A stretch of DNA of 64,000 nt from IMG/VR virus record IMGVR_UViG_3300021963_007405, one strand, 5' to 3'. The notes under the pieces are model-generated. The model saw nothing but the letters and a program-made list of their open reading frames with translations, was not told the origin of the DNA and made no database searches. The DNA is from an uncultured virus (IMG/VR IMGVR_UViG_3300021963_007405) (taxonomy: Duplodnaviria > Heunggongvirae > Uroviricota > Caudoviricetes). Made by a program: the position numbers and the translations under genes. Positions 1,758 through 30,075 of this stretch are shown here, one piece after another (the stretch's first letter is position 1; each line of letters starts with the position of its first letter).

Positions 1758-1971
1758 GGATGTTTATGCGTCGAATGTTAATTTCTTCATATAGAAGAGT
1801 GCGGATAGCTTCGATAGCTTCATCTGCTGTTTTAAAATCGTGTCCAAATTTATGATAGCTTCGCAGTCTATCTTCAAAATGACAAATAGCAGAAAACATA
1901 TCAATAGCTTGATTAGCCATCTCAAATCGTTTTTGATCTTCAGGTAGGTTGAATTCTAAGATTGCTTTCAT
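1750..1971 (-). CDS. Small phage protein (MKAILEFNLPED type)
   Basis: N-terminus typical of small phage ORFs; tiles with neighbours. Confidence 0.6.
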   Translation of the reverse strand: MKAILEFNLPEDQKRFEMANQAIDMFSAICHFEDRLRSYHKFGHDFKTADEAIEAIRTLLYEEINIRRINIHD

Positions 1972-1982
1972 AATTTTTAAAA

Positions 1983-2462
1983 TTACTCTTTAATTTTTAC
2001 AAATTTTACATATTCTATTGGGCATTCATAAAATTCTCTATCTCTTCCTTTGAAGCGGTCAGATTTAATAGTTTTTTTCCAAAATTTTTGATTTTTTGAA
2101 TAAGCTATAAAAGCGCAATCCATTTTTTCATTTAAAATAATATATGCATAAGGCTTAATTTTAGCTTTATCGTAAGTATGACAGACATCTATAATTAGAG
2201 TATCATAAGGAAAATCTTCCTTTGAAGTAAAAGTAAGTGATTTTCTTCTTTTTACTTCTATTCTTTGCATTATTTCCAAGTCTCCATCATCAGCAAATTC
2301 TGCCATATCTGATGATTTCGGCCTTTCAAATGTAGGTTTAATTACAACAGGAAAACCTTTTTTATTAAGCCATTCAGCCGCCACCATCACAGCATCTCTG
2401 CTTTCTCTAAGATCTTTTATAAAATTAGGATCTTTTTGATCGTAAATATCAAAGTTACTCAT
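1983..2462 (-). CDS. Putative PD-(D/E)XK nuclease-fold protein
   Basis: DDGDL...IEVKRR motif. Confidence 0.5.
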   Translation of the reverse strand: MSNFDIYDQKDPNFIKDLRESRDAVMVAAEWLNKKGFPVVIKPTFERPKSSDMAEFADDGDLEIMQRIEVKRRKSLTFTSKEDFPYDTLIIDVCHTYDKAKIKPYAYIILNEKMDCAFIAYSKNQKFWKKTIKSDRFKGRDREFYECPIEYVKFVKIKE

Positions 2463-3133
2463 TGTGTATTTTTATATTTTAAAAGTTGTTCACCGATATA
2501 TTTAGTATAGGCAGGTGGAATAGCTTCTGTCAATTCCCATCCTCGCTTAGGCCAATGCATATCCATAACCTTGCGCCAAACGTCGATTGAACCTTTGCGG
2601 CGACTCTTGCCAGTAACGCTCATGTCGCGATAATCAATACCATTCTCTTCGGCATATTTTTTAGAATATCCACGTTTAGCAATATTTTTTAATGGTGCAA
2701 CTGGAAAGTTACATTCAAAATATCTCGCTCGTTCGATTGGCATACCAAACATATAACCAGTTAATCTAAACGGTTCTATGAGATATTCTTTTGCACCGGC
2801 AACATTTTCAATAATATAATACTTTTTGGTCTCAATAAGTGCTTGACGAACTGGATGTATTAATTTTGGCGTGTCTTTGCCTTGAGAATAATGAACGTAA
2901 ATTGAATCAGGCTTTGTAGCTTTGCTGTACCCTTGGCAAGGGGGTGATGCATGAATAACATCAAAAGAATTAAGAAAATCTTTATCTTTCAAGATTTCAA
3001 TGACATCGCCCTTGATGAATTTAAAAGGATAACTAGGTTGATCTTTAATATCAACTCCAGTCACTTCAAATCCTGCACGGTGATAACCCATGCTTGCGCC
3101 ACCAGCGCAACAAAATAAATCAAGTAATTTCAT
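2459..3133 (-). CDS. DNA cytosine-C5 methyltransferase
   Basis: Motif I LDLFCCAGG, catalytic motif IV SPPCQ, motif VI ENV. Confidence 0.85.
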   Translation of the reverse strand: MKLLDLFCCAGGASMGYHRAGFEVTGVDIKDQPSYPFKFIKGDVIEILKDKDFLNSFDVIHASPPCQGYSKATKPDSIYVHYSQGKDTPKLIHPVRQALIETKKYYIIENVAGAKEYLIEPFRLTGYMFGMPIERARYFECNFPVAPLKNIAKRGYSKKYAEENGIDYRDMSVTGKSRRKGSIDVWRKVMDMHWPKRGWELTEAIPPAYTKYIGEQLLKYKNTQ

Positions 3134-3199
3134 AATTTTTGTAAAGGAAAGGTAAAAGTTGTATCTATTTTAGAAATTAACGTGTCAATTATTATAGAT

Positions 3200-3466
3200 A
3201 TGAAATATCTATTAACAATCATCGCGTTAACTCTCTCACTCAACGCCCAAGGTACACCAGAACATCCTCCCGGTCAAGGAGGAAATCATCGCAAACCCCC
3301 TGAAAAAATCAAAGAATTGCGCGAAGAAATGTTGAAAAAATACGATACAAATAAAGATGGAAAATTAGATAAAGAAGAAAGATCTAAAATTTCCTCTGAA
3401 GACCGTAAAAAGGTGGGTCCACCTCGCAGAGGACCAAAAGGTCCACCTCCTTCAAAGAAAGGCTAA
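3200..3466 (+). CDS. Secreted EF-hand protein
   Basis: Signal peptide MKYLLTIIALTLSLNA; EF-hand loop DTNKDGKLDKEE; ATG at 3200 preferred over GTG at 3182. Confidence 0.7.
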   Translation: MKYLLTIIALTLSLNAQGTPEHPPGQGGNHRKPPEKIKELREEMLKKYDTNKDGKLDKEERSKISSEDRKKVGPPRRGPKGPPPSKKG

Positions 3467-3467
3467 T

Positions 3468-3500
3468 AAAAACCCTCCAGTAATGGAGGGTTTGTTTTTT
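3468..3500. terminator. Bidirectional intrinsic terminator
   Basis: Stem AAACCCTCCA-gtaa-TGGAGGGTTT with A-run on the left and T-run on the right, between convergent genes. Confidence 0.8.
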
Positions 3501-3870
3501 ATTCACACTTTTTAAAACCCAGCAGTATTGCCGATTGTGTAGATAGTGTTTTGTACCATCCATGTTTTTCGCAAAGATATCCTTTGCCGCCAGTCACTTC
3601 GCAAGTTTTAGACGAAAGTTTTCCATATTTATCAATCATAGCGGAAGTTACTTCGTTGCCGCCGCTTGCATAAAATCGAAGTCCTGCAAACTTTTCTTTA
3701 ACTTGAAGTGCGACAACTTGTTCACAACCAGAATTATTAATTTCATGTTGTACGTCTTTGCAAAGATTAAAGATGATATCAAACCATCCATCGTCGCATT
3801 CAAAATAAAAATTCTCTTTAAAAATAGAGGGAAATCTATTAACGAGTTTTTCAGTATTTTTATCAGTCAT
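3499..3870 (-). CDS. Phage hypothetical protein
   Basis: ECDDGW...QVKEKFAGLRFY...CEVTG pattern that I recognise from large phages. Confidence 0.65.
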   Translation of the reverse strand: MTDKNTEKLVNRFPSIFKENFYFECDDGWFDIIFNLCKDVQHEINNSGCEQVVALQVKEKFAGLRFYASGGNEVTSAMIDKYGKLSSKTCEVTGGKGYLCEKHGWYKTLSTQSAILLGFKKCE

Positions 3871-4006
3871 GATTTCTATCGTTTTGGTTTAAATCGAAAG
3901 GGCTATCGTCTTGTTCTTCAATTTCTCCAAGGCAATCTACACAAACAGAACAATAATTAAGATCTTCTAAGAAAGCAGTTTTTTTGCCGCAGTAATCGCA
4001 GTTCAT
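3863..4006 (-). CDS. 47 aa zinc-finger-like protein (not in ORF track)
   Basis: MNCDYCGKK...YCSVCVDC with acidic tail; ATGA overlap with the upstream gene. Confidence 0.6.
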   Translation of the reverse strand: MNCDYCGKKTAFLEDLNYCSVCVDCLGEIEEQDDSPFDLNQNDRNHD

Positions 4007-4209
4007 TGATTTGCTAATTTAAAAATATCATCAAGAGTTTCTTTTACTCTAATACCATTGTTATTCCAACGAGTAATAATAATACTATGCTTCTTGCTAG
4101 GACTCGGTTCAATACTTACAACAGTGTCCATATTAAAAAGAATTGGCGTATATGCCATACTATTATCGTGATGCAAATCTAGTTGATGCAATTTTACAAA
4201 ATGAGCCAT
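4003..4209 (-). CDS. FlbD-like small protein
   Basis: FVKL...ILFNMDTVVSIE...VKETLDDI pattern; ATG at 4209 preferred. Confidence 0.5.
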   Translation of the reverse strand: MAHFVKLHQLDLHHDNSMAYTPILFNMDTVVSIEPSPSKKHSIIITRWNNNGIRVKETLDDIFKLANQ

Positions 4210-4256
4210 AAAATAAAAAAAGTGCGGTTTTAAGGATGACCGCAAACCTTGTTTGT

Positions 4257-4454
4257 TTAATTGCGACGGTAACTATCAGGAGCGCGAAACACTTCTTGTT
4301 CCTTATTAGCGTCACCCTCTACATAATAGATAACACCATTTACAGACTTAGCACATTGCATAGCCCAATCATACGCTTGCTTTTTTCCTAGCGCAAGATT
4401 ATAGGCTGACTGATATGTACCATCCTTGTCTCTAACGATATATCGTTTATTCAT
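4257..4454 (-). CDS. Hypothetical protein
   Basis: ORF tiling. Confidence 0.55.
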   Translation of the reverse strand: MNKRYIVRDKDGTYQSAYNLALGKKQAYDWAMQCAKSVNGVIYYVEGDANKEQEVFRAPDSYRRN

Positions 4455-4455
4455 T

Positions 4456-4716
4456 TTAGGAATTCTTAATTAGAATGTCGTGAATTAGATGGCGAGTCTT
4501 GTGATCAAGAATTCGACCTGTTTCATCCTTCGGAAGATCAGTGACAACCTTATCAAAATTAAGTCCAAGAACGGAACTCATACACTTAATCTTTCGGTAA
4601 ATACCAATCTCCTTATACTTTAGAATTGACCACAATGTGTCAACTTGTTCTGGAGTTGCCTTAGTGATGGCATTCAACAAGACAACTGGCTCTGTAACTG
4701 TAGCTGTTTCACTCAT
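4456..4716 (-). CDS. Hypothetical protein
   Basis: ORF tiling. Confidence 0.55.
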   Translation of the reverse strand: MSETATVTEPVVLLNAITKATPEQVDTLWSILKYKEIGIYRKIKCMSSVLGLNFDKVVTDLPKDETGRILDHKTRHLIHDILIKNS

Positions 4717-4725
4717 ATTATAATA

Positions 4726-5835
4726 TTACTGATCGTCAGACTTTTCACTGACTGTCACAATAGTTACAAGACTATTAGACAAAGCAATGTTATCGTCTTC
4801 ATGAACGGTAAATCCTAGATCCAAACAAATATCCTTGATTTCTTGACAAGTGATATGCGTTCCCTTTAGACGGGATTGAATGGACTTGAGGGTAGCAGGA
4901 GTTCCGCCTTCAACGCGACCCTCAACGTAATTCTTAATAGCTAGAATAGTAGCATCGCTATATCCATAGTCTTCATTGATATTGCAACCACAATCGTCGT
5001 CGCAATTATCATCGTCATCATCAACGCTGATTTCTTCATCAGTGTTGTAATATGGCTCATTAAGAGGAGCTTCTTCTTCTTTAATACGCTCGAAAGGAAC
5101 TTCTCCAATGACCTTGTATTTAGAAACACGAAGCTTCTGGAAATTGCAATCAGTAGGAACACTAACTGCATTAGAAGGATCGAACTCAACCATCATAAGA
5201 TGGCCGTCGTTACCAGCCCAATCCTTTGCATAATCATAGCTGCCAATGTGCAAGCCATGAGAACAATGATTGTCCTTATTATCATCAACGCTGTTACGAG
5301 CAACTTCAATAGTTTCGCCAATCTTATTGAGAATGCAACCATTTTTATTTACAGTACCAGTGATCACAACAGTATTAGTGTTGCCATGCTTTGAATAATA
5401 ATCAGCATCAACGCCTTTATATCCAATAACATTGCCAGTCTCAGTCAATGGCAAAGTCTTATAAGAAAGAAAAGTGTACAACTGATCGACACTGTTCTTG
5501 CTAGGATTGAACATAAGCTTCTCAATAAAATTGAGAATAGGTTGAGCGTCCTTAGCTCCTGAGCGCAAAAACTCAAGAAGCTTGTCAATTACAAAACCCT
5601 TCAGTTCGTAATTGCCGTAATAAACCTTCTCAGAAACAATCTTAATGCTGTTATGCGAGAAGTCTTCGATCTGCTTCTTGATATCAAGAAATCGACCAAT
5701 ACTGTCGTATTCTGCATTAAGCAGAGCGTTCTTCAATCCAGTATAATTGGGATTATCCGTATTCACCGTATACGGTTGACCTTCCCAAATGACCGTGATT
5801 GCGTTGCTGGTGACAATGTATGCTGGCTTGTTCAT
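4726..5835 (-). CDS. rIIB: RIIB-like protein
   Basis: NPS...QLYTFL, GYKGV, CSHGLH, VSVPTD..QKLRV motifs; directly downstream of rIIA. Confidence 0.85.
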   Translation of the reverse strand: MNKPAYIVTSNAITVIWEGQPYTVNTDNPNYTGLKNALLNAEYDSIGRFLDIKKQIEDFSHNSIKIVSEKVYYGNYELKGFVIDKLLEFLRSGAKDAQPILNFIEKLMFNPSKNSVDQLYTFLSYKTLPLTETGNVIGYKGVDADYYSKHGNTNTVVITGTVNKNGCILNKIGETIEVARNSVDDNKDNHCSHGLHIGSYDYAKDWAGNDGHLMMVEFDPSNAVSVPTDCNFQKLRVSKYKVIGEVPFERIKEEEAPLNEPYYNTDEEISVDDDDDNCDDDCGCNINEDYGYSDATILAIKNYVEGRVEGGTPATLKSIQSRLKGTHITCQEIKDICLDLGFTVHEDDNIALSNSLVTIVTVSEKSDDQ

Positions 5836-5864
5836 AATATTTTTTACACCTTAACTGTTCAACT

Positions 5865-5892
5865 ATGCTAACTCAAATTTTCGAAAAGTCAA
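5865..5892 (-). promoter_or_regulatory. Sigma70-type promoter
   Basis: TTGACT-N16-TAGCAT upstream of rIIB. Confidence 0.5.
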
Positions 5893-8065
5893 CCGAATTT
5901 TGCTGGTTGATGAAGGAAATGTATGCCTTAAATTCAACTTCATTTTTATTGCGATCAGTATGGTAAAGATCGGAGTGAATTTTAAGCATTGGATAATTTT
6001 TATAAATTTCTTCGGTTGCTTGTTTTAGATATTTTCCGCAGATAGAAACTGGAGTTTCATTGTCGTGAGACATATTAATTTTAAGAACTTCGAGTACATT
6101 CCGCCATTTTTTAATAAAATTAGCGAATTCAAGCATATTTGCTTTCTTAAGAAGTTCTGAACAAAAATTCAGTTTATAATCATATTTCTGACAAGTACTA
6201 ATATCTGCAACCATGACAGTAAAAGTCATAATATTATATGCGTCATCAGTCTTGCAAGAAATGTATTCAAGAATCAAAGACTTAATTTCATCAGAACAAG
6301 CATTCCATTTATCTTGGATATACTTAATAATATCAACGAAATCAGCGCGATTTTTAAATTTAACAGTTGCGGCTACATTATTTGATACTCCATAAACACT
6401 GATCTTAAACAATTTGGTTATATCGTCTAAAAAATGAGTATTGAGTTTATTCTTTTCGTAGTAAAATTGTGAATACTGATTAATAGGCTTTCCATCAGAG
6501 ATGGGAAAATAAAGCTTAGTAATAGAAGTATCGTTAATTTCTTGACCGAAAATAGTTGAACAGCGGAAAGCAGAACCTTCAACCTTATAAAAATAATTAG
6601 GAGTATATGAACTAGTAGAAGCTTTCTTGTTAGAAGGAAGCTTTACTGGAGTCAATTCACTAAGATTGCAGTAACCAGACTTAACAAGATCAAATCGATT
6701 AACCTCTTTAAACTTGTCAACACCATTAAGAGTAGCAGAACTAATGATTGATTGATCGTGAGCAATAACGACTACGTTTTTGTATTTTTTAACTAATTCG
6801 TAAACGCGAGGAACAACCTTGGTATTGTCTGGCAAATCGTGAAATACAATATAAGTATCTTTATCATTACCAATGGTATAACATTTGGAAATAGCTACAC
6901 GATCACCAGATACGCAATAATTTTTAGCATAAATAGGAATTCTATTAGTTTTATCATTCTCTTCATAACTAGCACGATTGAAATTCCAAGTAATAATTTT
7001 ATGACCTTTAAAAACAAAAACATCTTGATTTTGAAGTTGGTCAAAAGCATTTCGAGGAAACGTCTGGCTAATATCTTTATAGTAAGACATAGCATCACGC
7101 AAACAATCAAATTGCGCGATCTTGTTCTTGATAGAGTCAGTGAATTCTTTGCAGAAAGCTTGATAACGGGATTTCAAATAAGCTTTAGTAGTCTTGTTGT
7201 ACTCAAGTGTTTCGCGTGAGTGATGCAGCGAAACAGATCCAATATCAGCAATAAAAACAAGCTTATTAAGATACTTAGTCCATGCGTAATCATCGTCACT
7301 CTTGAAATCAACAAGTTCAGGATTGATAGGATAATAAATGCCGCCCATTACAATACCCTGCTCACCAACTGAATAATGATTATAACCATTAACAGATTTG
7401 CGAATTTGCCAATTAGTACCAGAAGCAACAATCTCAGGCTTTGCAATTTCAACTTGCAAATTCAAGAAGTGAGGCTGAACTTCAAAATTACTAAAGAATG
7501 AAGAAATTTCCTGATTGAACTTGTTGATATCGCCGCTCGAAACACCCACAGAAATACAAATACCATTTGCTTCCAAGGTAGGCTCACAAAATATCTCGTC
7601 AATCTTAGTGTCATTCTCTTCTGAGATATAAACACTATAAATAGACTTGATACCTTCATGATAAGAAGTAATGGTAAAACTATCTTTATAGGAAAGCGGA
7701 GCAAATCGACCAATGCCGAAACCGCCGATTGAAAGATCGGAACCACGCTTGGTAGACTTGCCAAACTTACTATACAGATTAAAAATCTGATCGCGACTCA
7801 AACCAGTTCCATAATCACGAACAAAAAAAGTCTGATCAAAAGTAGTTGGCGATTTGATGTCGATAGCTTGGACGGGAAAATCGTTCTCCAAGTTGGCATC
7901 GACAGCATTGGCATAAGTCTCACGAATGGTCGCGAGAATCGTATTTGAATAATTGTTTCGCAGAAGCGAGGAAATGTACCTCATGTCTTCAGCGTCAATC
8001 GTGCAGTTTACAGTGGGAAAATCGTGCGAAGTCGCAACGACCCGATCAGCAACAAGTATCTTCAT
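5873..8065 (-). CDS. rIIA: RIIA-like protein (GHKL ATPase N-domain)
   Basis: RETYANAVDA, VRDYGTGLS, STKR, GGFGIG; paired with rIIB. Confidence 0.85.
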   Translation of the reverse strand: MKILVADRVVATSHDFPTVNCTIDAEDMRYISSLLRNNYSNTILATIRETYANAVDANLENDFPVQAIDIKSPTTFDQTFFVRDYGTGLSRDQIFNLYSKFGKSTKRGSDLSIGGFGIGRFAPLSYKDSFTITSYHEGIKSIYSVYISEENDTKIDEIFCEPTLEANGICISVGVSSGDINKFNQEISSFFSNFEVQPHFLNLQVEIAKPEIVASGTNWQIRKSVNGYNHYSVGEQGIVMGGIYYPINPELVDFKSDDDYAWTKYLNKLVFIADIGSVSLHHSRETLEYNKTTKAYLKSRYQAFCKEFTDSIKNKIAQFDCLRDAMSYYKDISQTFPRNAFDQLQNQDVFVFKGHKIITWNFNRASYEENDKTNRIPIYAKNYCVSGDRVAISKCYTIGNDKDTYIVFHDLPDNTKVVPRVYELVKKYKNVVVIAHDQSIISSATLNGVDKFKEVNRFDLVKSGYCNLSELTPVKLPSNKKASTSSYTPNYFYKVEGSAFRCSTIFGQEINDTSITKLYFPISDGKPINQYSQFYYEKNKLNTHFLDDITKLFKISVYGVSNNVAATVKFKNRADFVDIIKYIQDKWNACSDEIKSLILEYISCKTDDAYNIMTFTVMVADISTCQKYDYKLNFCSELLKKANMLEFANFIKKWRNVLEVLKINMSHDNETPVSICGKYLKQATEEIYKNYPMLKIHSDLYHTDRNKNEVEFKAYISFINQQNSVDFSKI

Positions 8066-8374: not shown

Positions 8375-8448
8375 TGGAGCGGGTAGCGAGAATCGAACTC
8401 GCATTATCACTTTGGAAGAGTGAGACTTTACCATTAAGTTATACCCGC
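8375..8448 (-). tRNA. tRNA-Gly(TCC)
   Basis: GCGGGTA acceptor stem, anticodon arm TCACT-CTTCCAA-AGTGA, GTTCGATTC T-loop, encoded CCA. Confidence 0.93.
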
Positions 8449-10437: not shown

Positions 10438-10626
10438 TCAAAAATTTCCAAGCTCGTCGATCATTTTCACCTCAAGAGTTAACCTATTTTTTAATGCCAT
10501 TAATTGTTTCAAATATTTAGCTCTTTGTTTCTCATTTTTTGCATTTGTTACTTTATAAATAATTTTGTCAACTTCTTTATTAAAAAATGCAGCAGAATCT
10601 TCTATGATTTGTTTATGATTCAACAT
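10438..10626 (-). CDS. Hypothetical protein
   Basis: ORF tiling. Confidence 0.5.
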   Translation of the reverse strand: MLNHKQIIEDSAAFFNKEVDKIIYKVTNAKNEKQRAKYLKQLMALKNRLTLEVKMIDELGNF

Positions 10627-11131
10627 AGAGGGAATTTAAAAAATCTTGATCCTTTTTGTTCCAGTACAAGATCTTTTTGATATTCTTATTATCCATTTGA
10701 ATGCAGTTTATTCCATAGAATTTAAAGATTTCTTGGTATTTTAAATCAGGTTGCTGATCTGAACCTTTTAAATATTGCTGAATAAAATATACGCTTTTTA
10801 TTTTTGAAGCAGCAATTGTTTTGGCGCAGTGAATGCATGGGCTATAAACCATGCAAGCGTAGTGAGCTTGTCGCGAAGAATATAAAATAGCATTAATTTC
10901 TGCATGATTAATTAAGCAAGACTTGGTTTCGCGATCTTTAAATATTGATTCTTTAGGTAAAAAACCGGGACCGAATCCATTGAATCCGGTTGAAACGGTT
11001 CTCCAATCTTCGTCAAATAAGGCAACGCCTACTTGAGTGTGTGGGTCTTCTGATCGGGATCTGGCTGATAAAGCTAGATAACAACCGTATTCAGGTTTAC
11101 TTAGTCTCGGTGTGTTCGGGCTGAAACTCAT
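10613..11131 (-). CDS. dCMP deaminase
   Basis: RSEDPHTQVG, GFNG, HAE, PCxxC zinc motifs. Confidence 0.9.
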   Translation of the reverse strand: MSFSPNTPRLSKPEYGCYLALSARSRSEDPHTQVGVALFDEDWRTVSTGFNGFGPGFLPKESIFKDRETKSCLINHAEINAILYSSRQAHYACMVYSPCIHCAKTIAASKIKSVYFIQQYLKGSDQQPDLKYQEIFKFYGINCIQMDNKNIKKILYWNKKDQDFLNSLYVES

Positions 11132-13671: not shown

Positions 13672-14376
13672 TTAGAAGTTCCAGCGAACACCAGCGACAG
13701 CAACGATGTCGCCGCTAAACTCTTGCGAAGCGAACTTGTACTTTGAAGCTGAGAAGTTGTTGTCATACCAACCGACTTCAGCATAAGGCTGCAAGTGGTT
13801 GAAGAAAGTGCGAGATACGCCGATCTTTGCCGCGACAACATCATAATCAGTGAACTTACCATACTCTATTGCTGGAGTAACAGTGACCCATCCAAATACA
13901 TCGGTTGGGCGTTCAACGCCAACGATATAACCAGATTGCTTTAGATTGAAGTCATGTGAACCACGAATATAAGGAGTTAGATATGGATTGACCAAAGCAA
14001 TCTTTGGGGCTAGTTCGATAGAATTACGACCACCAACAATTGAGCTTTGATGGCGTAGCAACTGTAGATCGCCACGAAGAGAAAACTTCTCGGTAATCTT
14101 TAGAGCCTTGCCTACACCTACATTCCAGTGAGATTCATCGATGCTGTTAGAATCAGGAAGAATAACACCACCGACATAACCATCTACGCCAAAATAAGTT
14201 GATCCAATATCAAAACCAGCGAAACCTTGTCCGCTAGTCTTGGCTAGACCATTTACGATGTAGTGGTTGTTGTAGCCAGCATTAATACTGGCGCGAACTG
14301 AAGACTCAGTATCCGCAGCAAAAACTGCGACTGAGGCTAGAATTGACACGATGAATAACTTAAATGATTTAATCAT
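13672..14376 (-). CDS. Outer-membrane beta-barrel protein (porin-like)
   Basis: Sec signal ending VFA, amphipathic beta-strands, C-terminal BAM signal VRWNF. Confidence 0.75.
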   Translation of the reverse strand: MIKSFKLFIVSILASVAVFAADTESSVRASINAGYNNHYIVNGLAKTSGQGFAGFDIGSTYFGVDGYVGGVILPDSNSIDESHWNVGVGKALKITEKFSLRGDLQLLRHQSSIVGGRNSIELAPKIALVNPYLTPYIRGSHDFNLKQSGYIVGVERPTDVFGWVTVTPAIEYGKFTDYDVVAAKIGVSRTFFNHLQPYAEVGWYDNNFSASKYKFASQEFSGDIVAVAGVRWNF

Positions 14377-14385: not shown

Positions 14386-14413
14386 ATCTTACACAGATTC
14401 TGCGCCTTGTCAA
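14386..14413 (-). promoter_or_regulatory. Promoter (sigma70-type, also contains GTGTAA)
   Basis: TTGACA-N16-TAAGAT, then 9 nt to ATG. Confidence 0.6.
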
Positions 14414-15009
14414 CAAGTTTTTTCAGAGTCTTCTAGCTCTCTAATATTTATTAATTTACCGACATATTTACCATCTTCTTGTCTGACTGCTATACATTTT
14501 GCACTGAAAGATCTATTTTTACTATCTACAATTATTATTTCGTGTTCAAAGTTTCTTTTATTTTCTATTGCTATTTGCCAGCTTTCATTTATTTCTGTTC
14601 TAGTATTTTCGCAAAGAGCATTGATCCAATTATTGTTTTCTAAATCTTTAAATAATCTATCAGTCAAACGTATCATTGCGCTATTCGCCCAAGTAAAATT
14701 TCCGTTTTCATCTGTTTCAAATATCGGTTCTTCTCTATTATCTAATATCCATCTTTGTCGATAAAGAATTGTTTTAGTGGATAATTGAAGATCATTCATT
14801 TGATCTTTCAAGCTTTTACCGCCATTTGGTTTTAGTTCTTTAGAAATATGTGATATTTCATTTTTAAGAACCGCTATATCAGTAGTAATTGTTGTGAAAG
14901 GATGCAATTTTTTTAAAACATAAAACATATATCCGCAAAATGCTGTAATTACAACAATTGACGAGTTTATTTTATTTATAGTTTCAATAATTTCTTTTAG
15001 CGTATCCAT
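14410..15009 (-). CDS. Membrane-anchored PAS-domain protein
   Basis: N-terminal TM, coiled coil with ELKPNGGKSLKD, then PAS (PIFETDENGNFTWANSAM...W..A). Confidence 0.75.
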   Translation of the reverse strand: MDTLKEIIETINKINSSIVVITAFCGYMFYVLKKLHPFTTITTDIAVLKNEISHISKELKPNGGKSLKDQMNDLQLSTKTILYRQRWILDNREEPIFETDENGNFTWANSAMIRLTDRLFKDLENNNWINALCENTRTEINESWQIAIENKRNFEHEIIIVDSKNRSFSAKCIAVRQEDGKYVGKLINIRELEDSEKTC

Positions 15010-15018: not shown

Positions 15019-16803
15019 TTATGATTTTACACCGTTTTCAACATTAGTAGAATCACTTTTTTTAACTCTTGAAGATGGAAAACTTTTATTTCCAAAATCA
15101 GAACTATATAAACTATATAATCTCATTACGACTCCATGTTTAACAATAACGTCGCCAAGATCTTCTACTAAAACATAATTAGGTCTATCATATTTAGCCA
15201 TAACGTCAGAGCTAACTAATAAATGATTGCTTTCACCTGCATCCATAACTCTTTGAGCATAATTAATTCCATCGCCGCTTATATTTAAGTTACCATTAAT
15301 ATCTTCTAATGGGCAAACATCGCCGCAGTGAACGCCCATTCTCATTTGTAAATCTTCTCTATTTTTTACAGCTTTTGCTACAGTAATGCCACAATTAATA
15401 GCGTCTTCAAGATAAGTAAAGAATCCAAGAATCATGCCATCGCCTGTTGGTAAAACAATTAATTTTTCAAGAGCGTTAGCGGTTTTAAATTGGATGGTTG
15501 ATTTAACTATTTCTCCCAAATCTTTAAATACTTTTCTTTGTTCATCAGTTGTTTTTTTACTGTATCCAACAATATCCATGAAAAATATATAGCCATCTTG
15601 TATTTTGTCCAATTCGAGACGACTAGATTTAACTTCGGCATCAATCGCCGCAACTTGATTTATTATTTTCTTAGGTGGTTTTGGAGCTTCAACTTTTTTA
15701 ATTTCTTCGACTTTCTTTTCTTCGACTGGCTTGTTTTTGCTTTTTAAAAATTCTTTCCAACTGATAGTTTTTTTGTCTTTTTTCTTTGGATCTTTTGCGA
15801 CTTCTTCTTCATGTATTTTTTTTAACTTAACTTCTTCTTCGTTTCTTTTATCAATGTAAGCTTGCATTTGTTTTTTAAATTCTTCGCTAATATGAATTGT
15901 AACGTCTTTGCCTCCACCTCCATTGTCGATTTTTTTCTTTCTTGCTGCTCCTTTTAATTGAAGCAGTGTTTGCATTTTAATGTTACCAGTTTTAAAAGCT
16001 AAATCTAAAGGAGCGATTTCACCTTTAAAGTCTGCACCATTAACATTAGCTCCTAGACAGATCAAAAATTCAACCATTTCAATATCATTAGCATTAACTG
16101 CATAATGAATTGGCATCCATCCATTTTTATCATCGCGACCATTTATGCGACCATCAATATCAAAATACTTTTGAACTCCTTCGAAGTCTCCTGTTTCAGC
16201 ACAAAAATGAATGCTTGAGCCACCAGAAGACTTTGCTCCTGCTTTAGTTAGTATTCTTACTATTTCTCCTCTATTGCCTAAAGCTAATACATCAATTGGA
16301 TTATTTTTACCTAAAAAGTCTTTAGAATTAACATCAGCACCTCTAAGTATTAAGTATTCAACTAAATGTTTTTGTCCATAATGAACTGCATAATGCATTG
16401 CAGTCCAACCTTTTGCAGCGTCAACTTCATTTAAAGTATGACCTTTATTCAACATTTCTTCTACTGAAATTATGTCGCCATTTTTAGCTGCCAAATGAAA
16501 GCTGCTTCCGCTGCCATATTTTGCACCACGTTTTTGAAGAATATCAACAATAGCTAAAAAACCTTTTTGTTCTGCAATATCAAGTGCTGTATTTTTACTT
16601 GTCCAATCCATCAAATTTATATCAGCACCATGATTTAATAATAATTCGACAATCTCTTTACTATTTTCTGACACGGCAACAATAAGAGGAGGATTTCCAG
16701 TATCTTCATCTCTTTCATTTATATTTACTTTATCTTTGACTATGCAATTATAAACATTATCGTATAAATTACGTCGGATATGAGTAAAAATATTTATTGC
16801 CAT
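15019..16803 (-). CDS. Ankyrin-repeat / class III nucleotidyl cyclase fusion
   Basis: About 8 ankyrin repeats (GWTAMHYAV, GADVN); cyclase motifs FMDIVGYS, TGDG, RMGVHCG, GDGINYAQRV. Confidence 0.9.
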   Translation of the reverse strand: MAINIFTHIRRNLYDNVYNCIVKDKVNINERDEDTGNPPLIVAVSENSKEIVELLLNHGADINLMDWTSKNTALDIAEQKGFLAIVDILQKRGAKYGSGSSFHLAAKNGDIISVEEMLNKGHTLNEVDAAKGWTAMHYAVHYGQKHLVEYLILRGADVNSKDFLGKNNPIDVLALGNRGEIVRILTKAGAKSSGGSSIHFCAETGDFEGVQKYFDIDGRINGRDDKNGWMPIHYAVNANDIEMVEFLICLGANVNGADFKGEIAPLDLAFKTGNIKMQTLLQLKGAARKKKIDNGGGGKDVTIHISEEFKKQMQAYIDKRNEEEVKLKKIHEEEVAKDPKKKDKKTISWKEFLKSKNKPVEEKKVEEIKKVEAPKPPKKIINQVAAIDAEVKSSRLELDKIQDGYIFFMDIVGYSKKTTDEQRKVFKDLGEIVKSTIQFKTANALEKLIVLPTGDGMILGFFTYLEDAINCGITVAKAVKNREDLQMRMGVHCGDVCPLEDINGNLNISGDGINYAQRVMDAGESNHLLVSSDVMAKYDRPNYVLVEDLGDVIVKHGVVMRLYSLYSSDFGNKSFPSSRVKKSDSTNVENGVKS

Positions 16804-17124
16804 TTATCGTTTTTTTCTTTTAGTTTTTTTTGATTTTGTTTTATGACCTACTTTCTCTAAAAACTTTTCGCTGACTATTTCTACTAATTTTAATCCTAAA
16901 AATCCTGCAATAAAAGCTATGCCATTTTGATGTTTAGTATTTGTTACGTTTAATGTATCAACTAGAACAGGAGTAAGGAAGTTGGCGGCTGACATTCCAC
17001 CGATTAAAGATAAAAATACAGATTTAATATCTGTTTTTTCGTTTTTGGTAGCCATTAATATAGCTCCAAATAAACCACTGATTAAAAATCCAATCTGGAT
17101 TCCCATTTTTTGAAGTTGGTCCAT
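16804..17124 (-). CDS. Holin-like 3-TM membrane protein
   Basis: 106 aa, three hydrophobic Gly-rich helices, highly basic C-terminal tail. Confidence 0.6.
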   Translation of the reverse strand: MDQLQKMGIQIGFLISGLFGAILMATKNEKTDIKSVFLSLIGGMSAANFLTPVLVDTLNVTNTKHQNGIAFIAGFLGLKLVEIVSEKFLEKVGHKTKSKKTKRKKR

Positions 17125-17127: not shown

Positions 17128-17745
17128 TTATTTCTTTTTCTTTTTTATGGTTTTCTTTTTAATGGGTTGATTGTCGCTTTTAATTAAAAAAACTAATGAG
17201 ATAATAATCAAACATAAACTGTATAAATATATATTTAGTAGTTTTGTTTCATTATGAATTATTTTTTCTGAACTATTATTAATTAAATCTCTAAATTTTT
17301 CTTTGCTAAGATATATTCTCTTTTTATAATCTAAATATTTGTCACCAAAGAACGCTTTACTATCCATCTTTTCAAAAGCAGGCCCTTCTATTTCTTTTGC
17401 TAATTCATTGCTTATATCTAAACCAACTCTAAATTCTTTTAATTCCTCTTGAGTTAGTATTTTAGAAATAAAAACCTCGTTGTTGAAGTAATTTTCTCTT
17501 TCTTTTAAATGTACATTAAATTGCTCTAAGAATTTCTTATCTGCTGTAGCAGTATATGCAGCGCCAAGATATGTTAAATGATCTGTGGATCTTCTAAGGT
17601 AGAGAGTTATATCTCTACCAAATCTAAATCTTACAAATGCTTTTTCTATATCTTTTAGACTAGATAAAGCAAGCATAACAAGTATAGCAGTTGGCAAAAG
17701 CACTGCTAATAAGTATTTCTTTATATTTGAGACGACATTATTCAT
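17128..17745 (-). CDS. Stand-alone 2-TM periplasmic sensor-domain protein
   Basis: TM, helical domain (LRRSTDHLT..AYTATADKKFL...EEL..F...SNEL..IE..AF...FFGDKY), TM; resembles MCP/histidine-kinase ligand-binding domains. Confidence 0.55.
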   Translation of the reverse strand: MNNVVSNIKKYLLAVLLPTAILVMLALSSLKDIEKAFVRFRFGRDITLYLRRSTDHLTYLGAAYTATADKKFLEQFNVHLKERENYFNNEVFISKILTQEELKEFRVGLDISNELAKEIEGPAFEKMDSKAFFGDKYLDYKKRIYLSKEKFRDLINNSSEKIIHNETKLLNIYLYSLCLIIISLVFLIKSDNQPIKKKTIKKKKK

Positions 17746-18118
17746 TTTTCTTAAATCTACTAAGATCTAAATTAGCAAGTGGTTTTTCTATATTTAAAGA
17801 TGCGAGCCTTTCGTTTTGAACGACTAATTTGCTGCCGCCAAGAACTTTACCGTCAACTACGTCATAAATAAAAAATACAGTCTTGGTCAAACCGACTCTG
17901 ACAATTCTTCCCGGTTTTCCATCAACATACACTACATCATCTTCTTTATAGTCATTTCCAACAAACATAAATAAAGCGGCAGCAAATTTTTCAATGCTGG
18001 ATTTAAACATCAATGCTATTAATCCGATAATAAAAAGCCAAACATACTTTCCAGTAAGATCTTGGCCCGTAGATTCTAATACTTGTTGAGATATAATTTG
18101 TACGTTGTTTGTATCCAT
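17738..18118 (-). CDS. Truncated MscS-like membrane protein
   Basis: LMFKSSIEKFAAAL...YKEDDVVYVDGKPGRIVRVGLTKT matches the MscS TM3 plus middle beta domain. Confidence 0.55.
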   Translation of the reverse strand: MDTNNVQIISQQVLESTGQDLTGKYVWLFIIGLIALMFKSSIEKFAAALFMFVGNDYKEDDVVYVDGKPGRIVRVGLTKTVFFIYDVVDGKVLGGSKLVVQNERLASLNIEKPLANLDLSRFKKNE

Positions 18119-18121: not shown

Positions 18122-19075
18122 TTATTTGATCCACTTTTGTTCTTTGAGTATGTCGTCTATTAAATCTTTTTCATCGCTATCCATTTCTTTATCGAAACGT
18201 TTTAATATTTCGGTTAATGGGTATATTTTATCTGGTGATTCTTTTTGTTTTTCTTTGAGTTCTTGAATAACGTCTACGATTTTAACAAGAGGAGATTTAA
18301 ATTGTTCCACTTTGTCGTGGGTGGCGAAATTGGCAAGTTCAAAAGCTTTAGGAGTAAGAGCTTTAAGAATAGATATCATTGCAGATCCCAACATATTAAA
18401 TATTGAGAATGCTGCGGCAGCGGCAGGATGAACTGTGGCAAGAAGACGAAGAATAACGAATACTACCACAAATACAATAATTGCAGTTAATGCGCTAATA
18501 AAGAACTTCTTTAACCCCCAAAATACTGCATTAAGACCAAACATTCCGCTCATTGAATCTAATACAGCTTTATTTTGATCAGCTTCTTTGGCGACTTCTT
18601 TGGCTTTGTCAGTTAGTTGCCAAAGTTGATCATCGTATTTTTGATTTAACTCTGCTTTTTCTTTCTGAAGTTTATTAATTATTTCATCGCGTTGAGAAAG
18701 CATTTCTTCGCCTTTCCTGCGTTCTTCGACTAAGGCGGAATTTAGTAAATCTACTGTAGCTTTAATTCTTTTTGTTTCGTCTATGTGAGGCGAACCTACA
18801 ATAGAAATGACTCTTTCGTTTAATTTTAAAGCTGTGTCTACTTGTACAGGAGCATTAGTAACTTGATTCAAAGAATGCTGAATACCGACAGAAAGACCAG
18901 AGGTTTGGATTCTCTTGCCTTTGTCGTTTTTTTCTATTTCTACTAAAGTAGTGTCTACTTTTTTCTCTTCTTTAGCGATAACTTTCTGATTATCATCTAG
19001 TTGTTTTGCTGGCTTGATTGTGGAAAAGCAACCAGTCAAAAATAAAAAGAGTAATAAAAGAATGGATTTTTTCAT
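18122..19075 (-). CDS. Lipoprotein with coiled coil and C-proximal TM segments (u-spanin-like topology)
   Basis: Lipobox LTG|C, long helical region, then hydrophobic helices in the C-terminal half. Confidence 0.55.
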   Translation of the reverse strand: MKKSILLLLFLFLTGCFSTIKPAKQLDDNQKVIAKEEKKVDTTLVEIEKNDKGKRIQTSGLSVGIQHSLNQVTNAPVQVDTALKLNERVISIVGSPHIDETKRIKATVDLLNSALVEERRKGEEMLSQRDEIINKLQKEKAELNQKYDDQLWQLTDKAKEVAKEADQNKAVLDSMSGMFGLNAVFWGLKKFFISALTAIIVFVVVFVILRLLATVHPAAAAAFSIFNMLGSAMISILKALTPKAFELANFATHDKVEQFKSPLVKIVDVIQELKEKQKESPDKIYPLTEILKRFDKEMDSDEKDLIDDILKEQKWIK

Positions 19076-26308: not shown

Positions 26309-27457
26309 TTATTGACTAGCTTTTAGAAGAGCTTCTAGTTTACCATTTGGAGTTGTAATTCCACCAATAGCTGTAAAGATAGAAAGTCCTTCTTTTACTC
26401 CCTTATAAACACCTTGATGAACAGTGCTGTTAGTCTTCAAAGTTCTATTAAGTTGATTGAAAGCGTTGTCTAAATATTCTTGAGGAATATTATCTAGCGT
26501 CTTTTCATCACAAATAGCCACAGCAGCAGCGGTGCTACCAGTAGAAAGATCAAGCTCGCCGCAAAGAACATTTCTCTTGAGATTTTCGCGAACTGCTTTG
26601 CTGATTTCGGCTTCGTTGCTATGATTAGTAATGTTAGCTGCACCAAAAACCATAATACCAGAATCGAGAACAGTTCTAAAATCATTTGTATCAAATGTGC
26701 TATATTGACTATTCTTAGTAATAATATTATTAAATAAATGGAATAAAGAACAAATATTTGCGTTTGCTACTTGCCAAAACTTATTTACAGAGAGCTTTGG
26801 ATAAAGAGTATTAATTCTTTCATTATCAAGAATAATAAGAGGAGAAACAATCTTTTGCTCTACTAGTTCACAAGCTTCCTTTAGTGTCTCATAAGCATTT
26901 TGACTAACTTTCTTACCTTCAGAAAGCTTTGGCAAAGCGAGAATTAGACCAACATAAGGAGAACTTGCCTTTACAGTATTTTGATATTCCTTAACAGTCT
27001 TAACGAGTTCGGAGCAAACACCAGCACCAGTTCCACCACCAGCACCAACTGTTACAAAAATACGATCTATATCCGTACCAATTGAAGATTTAATAAAATC
27101 GACTACATCTTCTTTACTATTTAAGAAAGCTTGTTTAGCAAACTCTCTATTCTTTCCTGCTCCTTGCTGCTCGCCAAACTTCATTTTGTTTGGTACATTG
27201 ATAGTAGCAAGATCTTGATCAGCAGTATTAATTACACCAACGCGAGCATAACCAATTTGAGAGAATGTTTCAGCTAATTTGCCGCCACCTTGACCAGCAC
27301 CAATAAAGCCAAATTTAAAACCAACTGCATCTTTGTCCTTTGGTTCGGGTTTTTCTGATTGAGGAGGCTCAGGAATATCTGGCATCGCAAAATCAAACGT
27401 ATCGTTTGAAGCTGGAGGATTTGGATTCATACCGTAAATAGGATTATGATCGTTCAT
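26309..27457 (-). CDS. Tubulin/FtsZ-family GTPase
   Basis: GAGQGG, GGGTGAG tubulin signature, ILDN, T7-like DTNDF. Confidence 0.9.
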   Translation of the reverse strand: MNDHNPIYGMNPNPPASNDTFDFAMPDIPEPPQSEKPEPKDKDAVGFKFGFIGAGQGGGKLAETFSQIGYARVGVINTADQDLATINVPNKMKFGEQQGAGKNREFAKQAFLNSKEDVVDFIKSSIGTDIDRIFVTVGAGGGTGAGVCSELVKTVKEYQNTVKASSPYVGLILALPKLSEGKKVSQNAYETLKEACELVEQKIVSPLIILDNERINTLYPKLSVNKFWQVANANICSLFHLFNNIITKNSQYSTFDTNDFRTVLDSGIMVFGAANITNHSNEAEISKAVRENLKRNVLCGELDLSTGSTAAAVAICDEKTLDNIPQEYLDNAFNQLNRTLKTNSTVHQGVYKGVKEGLSIFTAIGGITTPNGKLEALLKASQ

Positions 27458-27460
27458 ATA

Positions 27461-27664
27461 TTATAGAATGTTTAAACTGTCGCCTTTGCGAACATCATCC
27501 CAACTAGTTTCGCCCTTGGATTTGTGACGAATCTTATATTGAGAATAACAAACAGCAGCGCGTTGCTTTTGATCCTTAAAATCTTTATTCATCATATCGT
27601 CACCCATGCAACGACTAACGAATTCTTGTTCTGTTTCTTTCTTAGATGGTTTAGGAAGTGGCAT
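27461..27664 (-). CDS. Small phage protein (EFVSRCM...AAVCYSQY type)
   Basis: Start at MPLPKP, 10 nt after GTGTAA. Confidence 0.65.
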
Positions 27665-27669
27665 ATAAA

Positions 27670-30075
27670 TTAAATTACACAAATATTGTTATCCTTAACA
27701 GAAATTTCCAAATTTAATTTTTTATCAGAATCAAGCATTTTTTCTGCAACTTGTGTTTGTAGCTCTCGCTGAATAGTTTTGATAACTTGTCGTGCGCCAA
27801 AGTTATTAAATTGTATTTTATCAAAAATAAAATTCGTTATTTCTGGAGAGTATTTTATATTAACATTTCTCTCTAATAGATCTGTCTTAAATAATTGTAA
27901 TTCTTTATCAATGATTAGTTTAATTTGTTCTTGCTCAAGAGCGTCAAAAATAACTACTTCATCAATGCGATTCAGTAGATCAGGTGGAAAATGCTTCTTA
28001 ATAGAAGAAAGCACATCAGATTTGCCAGCTTTCTGTTTTCCAAATCCTATAGCTGAATGATTAACAACTTCAGCACCAATATTTGTTGTCATAACAATCA
28101 TGGTGTTAGAAAAATCAACCATCTTTCCAGAAGAGTCTGTTATCTTTCCTTCTTCAAGGATTTGTAACAAAGAGTACAAAACATCTTGATCAGCCTTTTG
28201 AATTTCATCAAAAAGAATTAAAGAATATGGATTCTTTCTTACCTTTTCAGTTAATACTCCACCTTTATCAAATCCAATATAACCGGGACTAGATCCAACT
28301 AGTTTATTTACGGCGGTCTTGTCTGTGTATTCAGACATATCAATTGTTATAAAATTATTCTTATTAATGAATAATGTTTCAGCAATTATCTTTGCAGTCA
28401 TTGTCTTGCCAACACCCGTTGGTCCAGCATAAAGCATTGAACAAATGGGTTTATTTGGATTGCGGAAACCAGCTTTCGCTCTGATTAAAGATTTATATAT
28501 ATGTTCAATTTGATTATCTTGACCAAATACTTGTTCTTTTAGCTTAATTTTAAGCAATTTAACTTTATCAAAGTCTTGTAATTTCAAATCATCAATTGGA
28601 ATATTAGTTTTATCAGAGACGACTTCTAAAATATCGGTGTTTGTGACTTGATATCTATTGTTACGCCAATTAGTAATCATCTTTTTTGTAGACTCTTCAT
28701 ACTCAACCAACAACTCTTCTAAAGAAGAAATCTTTTTCTTCTCTATTGTTTGCTTATTAGAATCTACAAATTTACTGAGTTTCTTTTCTATCTTAAGCAT
28801 TTCAGGAGACTTTACAAAGTTCTTTAATTTAACTTTAGCTCCTACTTGATCAATAATGTCTAAAGCTTTGTCAGGAAATCTTCCTTCAATATATTTTTCA
28901 GCACTATTAATAATAAAATGAATAACATCGTCAGAAAAATCTATGACATGAAAATTTTCATATCCACTTTTAATATTCTTAATTAGATTAAAAGTTTGTT
29001 CTTTAGTGGGTTCTTCAATTTTAATAATCTGAAAACGCCTAGATAAAGCTGGGTCATCAGATATAGTCTTCTTGTATTCGTCGAAAGTGGTAGCACCAAT
29101 GCAGCTAATTTCTCCTCTAGCTAAATAAGGTTTTAGAATATTGGCGACATCATTTCCATTTTCTGGATTGCCAGCACCAATGATTGTATGAATTTCATCT
29201 ATAAATAGAACAATATATGGATCATCTGTGATTTCTTTTAGAAGATTTTTAATTTTCTCTTCAAATTCACCACGGAATTTGCATCCAGCAATCATCATTG
29301 GAATATCCAAACTATAGATTTGCTTTAAACTAAGCAGGTCAGACGCTTCACCTTTAACGATGGCTTGAGCTAAAGATTCGACTAAAGCGGTTTTACCTAC
29401 ACCAGCTTCGCCTACAATAAGTGGATTATTCTTATTCTTACGACAAAGAACTTCTGAGATCTTTTGAATCAGTTCTTTATTAAGATGTAGATTATTTATT
29501 TTACCATTAACAACTTGTATATTAAGATTATTAGCATAAGTATTTAAAACCTTATATTTCTTTATATCAAAAGTTTGTTTCGCTTCATTAGGACTGTTTA
29601 TTTCCTCCTCAACGCTTGGCAACATATCGTCATCTTCTAGTTTTTGCTCAACATAGTCCACGACTTTAACAAAATCATAATTATAATCAATCAAATAAAG
29701 TTCAAAAGTCTGATTAGGAACTTCAAATAAACTTAAAAATACATGTTCTAATCCAATGTATTTATGATCGAATTTGGAAGATATAGTTTTGGCGCATTTA
29801 AAAACATTAGTTACACCTTCAGATAATAAAGGCTTTAACGTAGCTTTCTTTTGTGCTGGAACATTAGCTTTTAGAAATACTATAGCACTATTCTTTATCT
29901 TTAAAGAATCTATGCCAAAATTTCCAAACGCTTCTTCTATTTGACTCTGCTTAAGATTCAAAAAACTTATAAATAAATGAAGATGCGTGATCTCTGTATG
30001 CTTGAGATCTACAGCTATTTTATAAGCTTCTTTGATTAGCTTTTGCGCTCTTGGTGTTAAATTTAAATTTTTCAT
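27670..30075 (-). CDS. ClpA/ClpC-family AAA+ chaperone
   Basis: Clp N repeats, [29 protein letters not shown], pore loop GYIG. Confidence 0.93.

Follow-up and report, generated by a model that had tools for sequence, protein, structure and literature searches.

A conserved phage gene joining nine ankyrin repeats to a predicted class III nucleotidyl cyclase domain with a leucine/asparagine base pocket

Introduction

Phages degrade or sequester host cyclic-nucleotide signals. Among the bacterial class III cyclases, in which a lysine/aspartate couple is the familiar mark of adenylyl cyclases, Rv1900c lacks this couple, carrying asparagine and histidine, and is still an adenylyl cyclase. Moreover, Castro and co-workers reportedly described in 2005 a glutamine/asparagine pair in Rv0386 of Mycobacterium tuberculosis, said to be an adenylyl cyclase with a guanylyl side activity. 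Rv0386 is also mentioned second-hand, with a loosely worded attribution, in a passage of a preprint (bioRxiv 10.1101/2024.03.06.583649). The present work concerns a gene that lies at positions 15019..16803, on the minus strand, of a stretch of 64,000 nucleotides from an uncultured virus (IMG/VR record IMGVR_UViG_3300021963_007405; Duplodnaviria, Heunggongvirae, Uroviricota, Caudoviricetes). The whole of this stretch is hereafter called the window. The gene encodes a protein, here designated Ank-CHD, in which ankyrin repeats are joined to a class III cyclase-homology domain (CHD).

Class III machinery is also a component of antiviral immunity and of other biological conflict systems. In the excerpted text of one study, the pocket of the cyclase AnPycC is described as shaped by the bulky residues F60/K104/F109, and asparagine as the residue that reads uracil in PycTIR and in some CD-NTases (PMC11224242). 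The portion available of a more recent preprint assigns Tyr50/Asp94/Arg97 to the pocket of BcPycC and defines an "immune clade 1", in which cyclic nucleoside monophosphate (cNMP) cyclases are fused to NACHT and AP-ATPase STAND modules (10.64898/2026.08.12.744502). Furthermore, cNMP cyclases are listed among the effector domains of conflict systems, where catalytically inactive cNMP cyclase domains occur as well, in the relevant extracts of a survey of such systems (Kaur et al., 2020, PMC7159879).

Results

Architecture, Fold and Catalytic Residues

In the 594-aa protein nine N-terminal ankyrin repeats are followed by a charged linker and by the C-terminal CHD (Table 1). The ankyrin region, which extends in Pfam from about residue 20 to 290, was matched by Ank_2 (E 1.4e-34), by Ank (E 2.2e-33) and by Ank families with values from 1e-22 to 1e-34, and the CHD was matched by PF00211 (Guanylate_cyc) with 25.4 bits against a cut-off of 21.9 (E 1.3e-5). 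The initial annotation, which had described exactly this frame as an ankyrin and class III cyclase gene, is therefore borne out by the list of open reading frames (ORFs) and by Pfam. No STAND module was found in Ank-CHD by the Pfam scan.

A model of the CHD (residues 388-594), calculated with AlphaFold2 from an alignment of 24 short homologues (alignment A1), had a mean predicted local distance difference test (pLDDT) of 91.6 and a predicted template modelling score (pTM) of 0.86. Searched with this model, Foldseek returned class III cyclases only; the best was 3et6_B (E 1.8e-12), and Rv1900c (target-normalised TM-score 0.82) was followed by Ma1120, rhodopsin guanylyl cyclases and mammalian adenylyl cyclase. 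By VIA-align, Rv1264, Ma1120, Rv1900c and several guanylate cyclases were effectively tied, with Z from 17 to 20 and a root-mean-square deviation (rmsd) of 2.2-2.6 Å over about 155-170 residues. The sequence of the CHD matched 3mr7, Ma1120 and Rv1900c in the PDB, with a best E of 1e-5. In the full-length AlphaFold2 model (pLDDT 79) nine ankyrin helix pairs are packed between residues 5 and 283; the linker is disordered at 290-306, forms a long Lys/Glu-rich helix at 307-337 and is again disordered at 362-388, and the CHD begins at about residue 400.

The motifs MDIVG, TGDG, NISG and NYAQR are located at residues 409, 453, 507 and 514, respectively. When the query is aligned residue by residue with the solved cyclase 3mr7 by HMMER, its LPTGD pairs with KTTGD and its NISGDGINYAQR with DIFGDAVNVAAR. 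The changes from Lys to Leu451 and from Asp to Asn507 are thus real substitutions at both canonical specificity positions. The same comparison aligns D410, D455, N514 and R518 with 3mr7, in agreement with the earlier proposal that both metal-binding aspartates and the NxAxR motif are intact and that the enzyme looks catalytically competent; it likewise upholds the view that the specificity positions are non-canonical, with LPTGD in place of KxxGD and Asn in place of Asp/Thr. That the product is not readable from the sequence is also agreed. The canonical purine pair (Lys with Asp/Thr for ATP, Glu with a Cys/Ser-type residue for GTP) is absent from the phage CHD. Its absence bears on substrate choice and not on class III membership, whose sequence and fold features are present, namely a PF00211 match above threshold, the alpha/beta catalytic fold and the residues D410/D455/N514/R518.

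Residues were counted in 271 homologous domain rows aligned to the query, divided into a close set of 115 (P0001-P0115) and a distant set of 156 (P0116-P0269). All 115 close rows carry Asp at D410 and at D455, Leu at the lysine position (L451), Asn at the Asp/Thr position (N507), Asn at N514 and Arg at R518. In the distant set the two aspartates are kept in 154 of 156 rows each, N514 in 153 and R518 in all 156; position 507 is Asn in 149 rows, and position 451 is Leu in 131 and Ile in 19. The complete D/L/D/N/N/R set is also retained in 36 of 36 unique viral domains of a second, more distant clade (clade B, see below). The idea that the odd residues are a peculiarity of the phage enzyme does not survive these counts, in which Leu/Asn dominates the 271 homologous domains, cellular ones included. 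Taken alone, the odd residues are no evidence of new chemistry.

The Leucine/Asparagine Subfamily in Cells

A HMMER search with the CHD alone over 1.84 billion cluster representatives gave 5437 matches at E<=1e-3, 2044 at E<=1e-10 and 519 at E<=1e-30. The 149 representatives listed beyond the cluster of the window itself (E 1e-45 to 1e-36) are 38-48% identical to the phage CHD along the entire domain. The consensus of the subfamily is DIVGYS ... LPTGDGM ... N[VI]AGxGINxAQR, and all the invariant columns of alignment A1 are common to the phage CHD and to the subfamily. On these alignments Leu/Asn is an inherited, near-invariant signature of a very large cellular CHD subfamily and hence no phage invention.

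In 30 representatives scanned with Pfam the CHD is mostly accompanied by TPR or MalT-like TPR repeats; the other partners are an N-terminal Ser/Thr kinase, WD40/PD40 propellers, an NB-ARC domain (P0243) and a pPIWI-associated nuclease (P0131). Species genomes contain more than 632 loci with the CHD. The best 79 of these more than 632 loci belong mostly to Verrucomicrobiota (Chthoniobacterales, Udaeobacter) and to metagenome-assembled genomes (MAGs) of Acidobacteriota, at 38-45% identity, with a few other phyla, such as Armatimonadota. In 87 of the 102 domain rows from these best 79 loci the CHD stands at the N-terminus, the median protein length is 781 aa and tandem paralogues of CHD proteins are frequent in Verrucomicrobiota/Acidobacteriota. 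Pfam partners were tabulated for 37 of the 68 listed CHD proteins with a length of 300 aa or more, namely the first 40 less three that are cut by the end of their locus. At E<=1e-8 the partners are TPR (26 proteins), PD40 (1), TIR_2 with AAA_35 (1) and kinase (1), with nothing beyond the cyclase in eight. The TIR_2 protein, encoded at 3941-6040 (+) of locus L106 in an Armatimonadota MAG, is a fusion of a Leu/Asn CHD to TIR_2 and to an AAA_35 ATPase, and is immune-looking.

The Viral Family and Its Selection

The CHD of the clade to which the window belongs (clade A) is present in 79 IMG/VR loci, at 78-100% identity and on contigs of up to 295,831 bp, and a word-indexed protein search listed among its matches 115 proteins with the same architecture at 66-95% identity. 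Clade B, represented by P0125 and P0130 with about 45% CHD identity, is also viral and accounts for 10 and 41 IMG/VR loci, partly overlapping. The two viral clades together comprise well over 100 IMG/VR loci.

An unrooted tree of 93 CHD rows was computed with IQ-TREE (LG+G4) by the quick method, whose result deserves less trust than that of a careful search. It was built from the window, eight clade-A proteins chosen by hand among the 115 listed, every third clade-B domain out of 36, P0125 and P0130, and the first 70 other representatives, for which "cellular" means no more than that a viral origin is not known. The viral rows are set apart from 69 non-viral rows by a branch with SH-aLRT 100; only P0139, a 187-aa fragment first labelled cellular, groups with them and is evidently a piece of clade B. 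As judged from this tree, the phage Ank-CHD genes are one monophyletic family that divides deeply into two clades. A recent capture of the gene from a host was rejected, as the nearest cellular domains are only 38-48% identical and the viral genes are monophyletic. Moreover, invariant columns common to both viral clades run through the ankyrin region, with few in the linker. Since both clades share this conservation, the fusion of ankyrin repeats and CHD is itself old.

The ratio of nonsynonymous to synonymous substitutions (dN/dS) was estimated by the Nei-Gojobori method against seven relatives (L001, L003, L004, L010, L011, L012 and L056), with dS saturated in the more distant pairs. Over the whole gene it is 0.04-0.10, and within the CHD 0.00-0.09. 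The ankyrin part gives 0.03-0.08 in six of seven pairs, the L012 pair having a saturated dS and no value, and the linker, the least conserved part, 0.02-0.18. Purifying selection is strong in every part of the gene. An ankyrin domain that is conserved and not diversifying suggests, in turn, a conserved binding partner. In a collection of cultured phages no match to the cyclase was found, the only matches being ankyrins of phage WO, at 29% identity over the repeat region.

Receptors, Effectors and a Second Cyclase

The window has 88 ORFs of 90 aa or more, of which 72 were scanned with Pfam together and the cyclase separately; the other 15 are shadow or open-ended. The cNMP-binding domain PF00027 was found in none of the 72 window ORFs and in none of four related phage records, two of which are 100% complete by CheckV (295,831 and 174,551 bp) and two about half complete. 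PADLOC, which we take to contain PycC models, matched at E<=1 two ankyrin models only and gave no match to PycC. There is also no PycC structure among the rows shown by Foldseek and VIA-align, which by itself proves nothing. The genes around the cyclase encode a holin-like protein, a transmembrane PAS protein and a barrel resembling an outer-membrane protein (OMP), and not PycTM or PycTIR. The analogy with Pycsar drawn in the initial annotation thus finds neither a PycC model match at this threshold nor a cNMP-binding effector in the 72 window ORFs and the four records, and membership of Pycsar/PycC was rejected on these two grounds.

The 295,831-bp record (G001) carries a second cyclase of canonical type, encoded at 628-2067 (+) of locus L206. 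This membrane protein of 479 aa (PF00211, E 5.8e-27) has an N-terminal membrane/sensor region, and its KFIGD and TVTGDPVNLASR make up a Lys/Thr pair. Its gene is flanked by an OMP-like ORF and by an ORF of 258 aa without a Pfam match. No second cyclase was found in the other three of the four related phage records.

Genomic Context

Coordinates of the gene, its parts and its neighbours are collected in Table 1.

Table 1. Positions in the window of the Ank-CHD gene, of its domains and diagnostic residues, and of the neighbouring genes.
Feature	Position	Strand	Basis or remark
Whole Ank-CHD gene	15019..16803	(-)	594 codons + TAA stop; ORF list
Ankyrin-repeat domain, residues 5-285, nine helix-pair repeats	15949..16791	(-)	Pfam and AlphaFold2
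Lys/Glu-rich linker, residues 286-399	15607..15948	(-)	AlphaFold2 secondary structure and pLDDT
Class III CHD, residues 400-580	15064..15606	(-)	Pfam, PDB, AlphaFold2, Foldseek, VIA-align
Asp410, first metal-binding Asp (FMDIVGYS)	15574..15576	(-)	codon GAT
Leu451, position of the adenine-binding Lys, four residues before Asp455	15451..15453	(-)	codon TTA
Asp455, second metal-binding Asp (LPTGDGM)	15439..15441	(-)	codon GAT
Asn507, Asp/Thr specificity position, seven residues before Asn514	15283..15285	(-)	codon AAT
Asn514...Arg518 (NYAQR), transition-state-stabilising pair	15250..15264	(-)	codons AAT, AGA
Predicted lipoprotein, 317 aa, C-terminal hydrophobic segments	18122..19075	(-)	lipobox-like N-terminus read from sequence
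Membrane protein, 126 aa, weak MscS beta-domain likeness	17738..18118	(-)	MS_channel_2nd E 0.021, below cut-off (Pfam)
Membrane protein, 205 aa	17128-17745	(-)	with the holin-like gene, between the mini-MscS-like gene and the cyclase
Holin-like gene	16804-17124	(-)	PHROG holin phrog_2359, E 4.6e-13
Transmembrane PAS protein, downstream of the cyclase	14410-15009	(-)	PAS_9 E 1.3e-7
Signal-peptide protein, weak OMP beta-barrel likeness, ends ...RWNF, downstream	13672-14376	(-)	

Among the 79 clade-A loci, the cyclase is present in 76 (at more than 50% coverage), the 126-aa protein in 70 and the lipoprotein, which has no Pfam match above a cut-off, in 67. The OMP-like barrel is found in 11, HNH in 8, the transmembrane PAS protein in 5 and the pair formed by the holin-like gene and the 205-aa gene in a single locus (L010). 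A conserved trio can thus be recognised, consisting of the lipoprotein as first gene, the 126-aa protein, which is the usual immediate upstream neighbour in the relatives, and Ank-CHD. In clade B, 18 of 36 unique genes have within 6 kb a homologue of the 126-aa protein, at variable distance and on either strand. Among related phages this linkage of the 126-aa protein could be mere synteny. As the holin and 205-aa pair is shared by only one of 79 related loci, it is therefore regarded as an insertion in the window and not as part of the conserved unit, and on the same count of the upstream holin-like gene the cyclase was rejected as a member of a lysis cassette. A five-gene sensing operon made of lipoprotein, mini-MscS, cyclase, transmembrane PAS protein and barrel was likewise discarded, since only the first three are widely linked; the genes downstream of the cyclase are swappable. 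Where the window carries the transmembrane PAS gene, several relatives have an ORF of 70 aa that overlaps the Ank-CHD stop codon (10612-10824 (+) in L012, and also in L010, L056 and L070). This ORF is conserved and without a Pfam match, and its overlap with the stop codon makes translational coupling possible. The minus-strand run in the window is bracketed by a promoter-like site (19197-19169) and by a terminator-like hairpin (13646-13625), and promoter-like sites are not enriched in the window, where 28 were found against 27.3 expected from shuffles.

Judged by its genes, the window seems to be a piece of a large phage genome. Almost all the genes are on one strand and include those for a split DnaE-type polymerase, DnaB, a RecA-like protein, class II ribonucleotide reductase, dUTPase, dCMP deaminase, UvdE, HNH, ClpB and a tubulin homologue, together with three tRNAs, the holin-like gene and a long sugar-biosynthesis block. 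Some regions deserve a separate description. The region 26309-33995 (-) encodes a tubulin/FtsZ-family protein of 382 aa, a ClpB-type double AAA+ chaperone of 801 aa and DnaE split into PHP, exonuclease and polymerase genes. A glycan block of about 17 kb (44558-61873, minus strand), whose GC content is 0.25-0.30 against 0.30-0.40 in the rest of the window, encodes GDP-mannose dehydratase, epimerases, UDP-glucose dehydrogenase, FkbM methyltransferases, glycosyltransferases of families 2, 11 and 25, NAD synthase and a HAD-nucleotidyltransferase. Finally, the region 2459-8065 (-) contains a fragment-like ORF of 224 aa for a C-5 cytosine methylase (first 114 profile positions) and a HATPase_c_3 protein of 730 aa, and is adjoined by a tRNA-Gly (8375-8448).

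Discussion

Proposed Function and Alternatives

Ank-CHD is a conserved accessory gene in a lineage of large, uncultured aquatic phages, and its product is a predicted cytoplasmic protein. From the evidence described above, the protein probably works as a homodimeric class III cyclase and produces a 3',5'-cNMP inside infected cells, with the ankyrin domain as tether or switch through a conserved partner and with the messenger acting on host receptors. As in other class III cyclases, two copies of the CHD would pair head to tail, and in the two active sites formed between them a nucleoside triphosphate (NTP) would be converted, during infection, into the 3',5'-cNMP and pyrophosphate. The ankyrin domain would bind a conserved host or phage protein, and this binding would localise or switch the cyclase. 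The suggestion of the initial annotation that the ankyrin repeats are the activation input agrees at least with the subfamily, in which repeat-type binding domains are the usual partners of the CHD (TPR in 26 of 37 cellular proteins). Acting on host receptors, the messenger would then reprogramme the physiology of the host while the infection proceeds. The best guess for the product is cAMP, possibly with a side activity on other NTPs, because the nearest folds are compact bacterial CHDs and because Rv0386 and Rv1900c, both without the Lys/Asp couple, are said to make mainly cAMP.

Several points weigh against this reading. With lysine replaced by leucine, it is not obvious what a purine could form a hydrogen bond with, and cAMP is accordingly no more than a guess. 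PF00211 is covered at positions 93-180 of 183 only, that is in its C-terminal half, by the match of 25.4 bits. For the Leu/Asn subfamily no solved structure was found, the best PDB sequence match being that at E 1e-5 already mentioned, and a word search of the open-access literature found no assay of any of its members. No cultured relative was found that would indicate a host, the best DnaE identity to any phage record being 29%. The lack of the cyclic-nucleotide-binding domain leaves other types of receptor to be considered, with two of the four records about half complete. Furthermore, among the cellular relatives, the CHD joined to TIR and AAA_35 (L106), the NB-ARC protein (P0243) and the pPIWI-associated nuclease (P0131) point towards conflict systems and not housekeeping signalling.

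This last point leads to an alternative that we consider unlikely, in which Ank-CHD is a phage-borne conflict module derived from a STAND/TPR-linked cyclase clade. The ankyrin domain would sense a competitor or a host protein and the cyclase would emit an alarm nucleotide, with superinfection exclusion as the outcome, or else the pre-empting, jamming or mimicking of a cyclase-based defence of the host. The immune-type partners of the cellular relatives (NB-ARC with TPR in P0243, MalT-like TPR, Ser/Thr kinases, the nuclease of P0131, TIR_2 with AAA_35 in L106) argue for it, as do the tandem paralogues in Verrucomicrobiota/Acidobacteriota genomes, the STAND-fused "immune clade 1" of the preprint (10.64898/2026.08.12.744502), with which the Leu/Asn subfamily may or may not be identical, and the listing of cyclase effectors in PMC7159879. 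However, most of the cellular relatives (26 of 37) are plain CHD and TPR proteins, equally typical of ordinary signalling. The window and the four related phage records yielded neither an effector nor a cNMP receptor, the ankyrin dN/dS of 0.03-0.08 is unlike that of a diversifying arms-race sensor, and an abortive-infection signal would normally hurt the phage. A bolder proposal, to which we give only a slim chance, is that the Leu/Asn pocket marks a messenger beyond cAMP/cGMP, or one used by STAND/TPR immune sensors, and that such a domain was captured once, fused to ankyrin repeats and long kept by phages for emitting or jamming that signal. If this were true, Ank-CHD would be a phage second-messenger synthase acting in host-virus conflict.

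The loss of both base-contacting residues has also another possible explanation, namely that in vivo the protein is no cyclase at all but a nucleotide-binding or scaffolding pseudo-enzyme, or one subunit of a heterodimer, with the main function carried by the ankyrin domain. Inactive cNMP cyclase domains are known in conflict systems, according to the extracts of PMC7159879, and the 296-kb relative does possess a second cyclase, with the canonical Lys/Thr pair (L206); three of the four related phage records, however, have no second cyclase. Four catalytic residues that are invariant in 115 of 115 close and in 36 of 36 clade-B homologues, and nearly so in cells, together with a CHD dN/dS of 0.00-0.09, make this explanation quite improbable. 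The same missing Lys and Asp/Thr could be taken as the sign of a Pycsar-type pyrimidine cyclase (cCMP/cUMP), or of a decoy for such immunity, and asparagine does read uracil in PycTIR and in some CD-NTases in the text excerpted from PMC11224242. Against this stand the PADLOC search, which at E<=1 matched ankyrin models only, and the 72 window ORFs and four phage records, where no adjoining cNMP-binding transmembrane or TIR effector was found. The pocket residues of AnPycC and BcPycC could not be placed on the phage protein, and the nearest solved folds listed are adenylyl/guanylyl cyclases, an observation inconclusive alone. A pyrimidine cyclase or decoy of this type therefore appears very improbable. 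An active cyclase tethered or switched through its ankyrin repeats remains the reading that we prefer.

Significance

The class of enzyme is a known one; what is new is a monophyletic, ankyrin-fused phage branch of an uncharacterised Leu/Asn subfamily. A word search of the open-access literature brought up no publication that deals with class III cyclases of phages or with the Leu/Asn subfamily, a result by which absence is not proven, and neither "cNMP" nor "ankyrin" occurs in the text of a survey of 224 jumbo-phage genomes. A widespread, conserved phage gene that apparently synthesises a cyclic-nucleotide signal would represent the opposite strategy to the degradation or sequestration of such signals. 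From a practical perspective, Ank-CHD offers a compact and soluble way into a very large cyclase subfamily (519 clusters at E<=1e-30), and the product of this subfamily, once known, would at one stroke supply an annotation for thousands of bacterial proteins of the CHD-TPR, kinase and STAND types.

Comparison With Known Systems

Like the phage CHD, PycC and PucC, the latter being cGMP cyclases, are described in the portions of text at hand as class III machinery with re-tooled base pockets (PMC11224242; 10.64898/2026.08.12.744502). They reside, however, in defence islands, whereas the Ank-CHD gene is carried by a phage, without a PycC match or an effector partner. The closest solved relatives are the compact soluble bacterial CHDs of Rv1900c/LipJ (1ybt, 1ybu), Mycobacterium avium Ma1120 (4wp9, 5d0e), Rv1264 (1y10, 1y11) and Ruegeria pomeroyi (3mr7). 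They share with the phage CHD the fold (VIA-align Z 19-20, rmsd 2.2-2.5 Å over 156-166 residues; Foldseek TM-score 0.81-0.82), the pair of metal-binding aspartates and the Asn/Arg pair. The differences are the low identity (22-25%), the Lys/Asp of 3mr7 and Ma1120 against the Leu/Asn of the phage protein, and the fusion of the latter to nine ankyrin repeats. Rv0386, compared by description and not by sequence alignment, resembles the phage CHD in having Asn at the aspartate position and in having lost the lysine, but it is a cellular regulator composed of a CHD, an ATPase and a LuxR-type helix-turn-helix domain, with Gln where the phage CHD has Leu.

As regards the repeats, the ankyrins of Wolbachia phage WO are phage-encoded like those of Ank-CHD but lack a cyclase domain, and the phage-encoded ankyrin proteins of a preprint on the "ankyphages" of sponge symbionts are reportedly also without it. 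For the WO and ankyphage proteins eukaryotic targets have been proposed, whereas nothing in the present data points to a eukaryotic target. The cellular Leu/Asn subfamily shares with the phage protein all the hallmark residues, including Leu451 and Asn507, and the pairing of the CHD with a repeat-type protein-binding module. In the cellular proteins, however, the CHD is N-terminal and the repeats are TPR, while in the phage proteins the order is reversed, the repeats are ankyrins and the genes, to judge from the tree, form a clade of their own.

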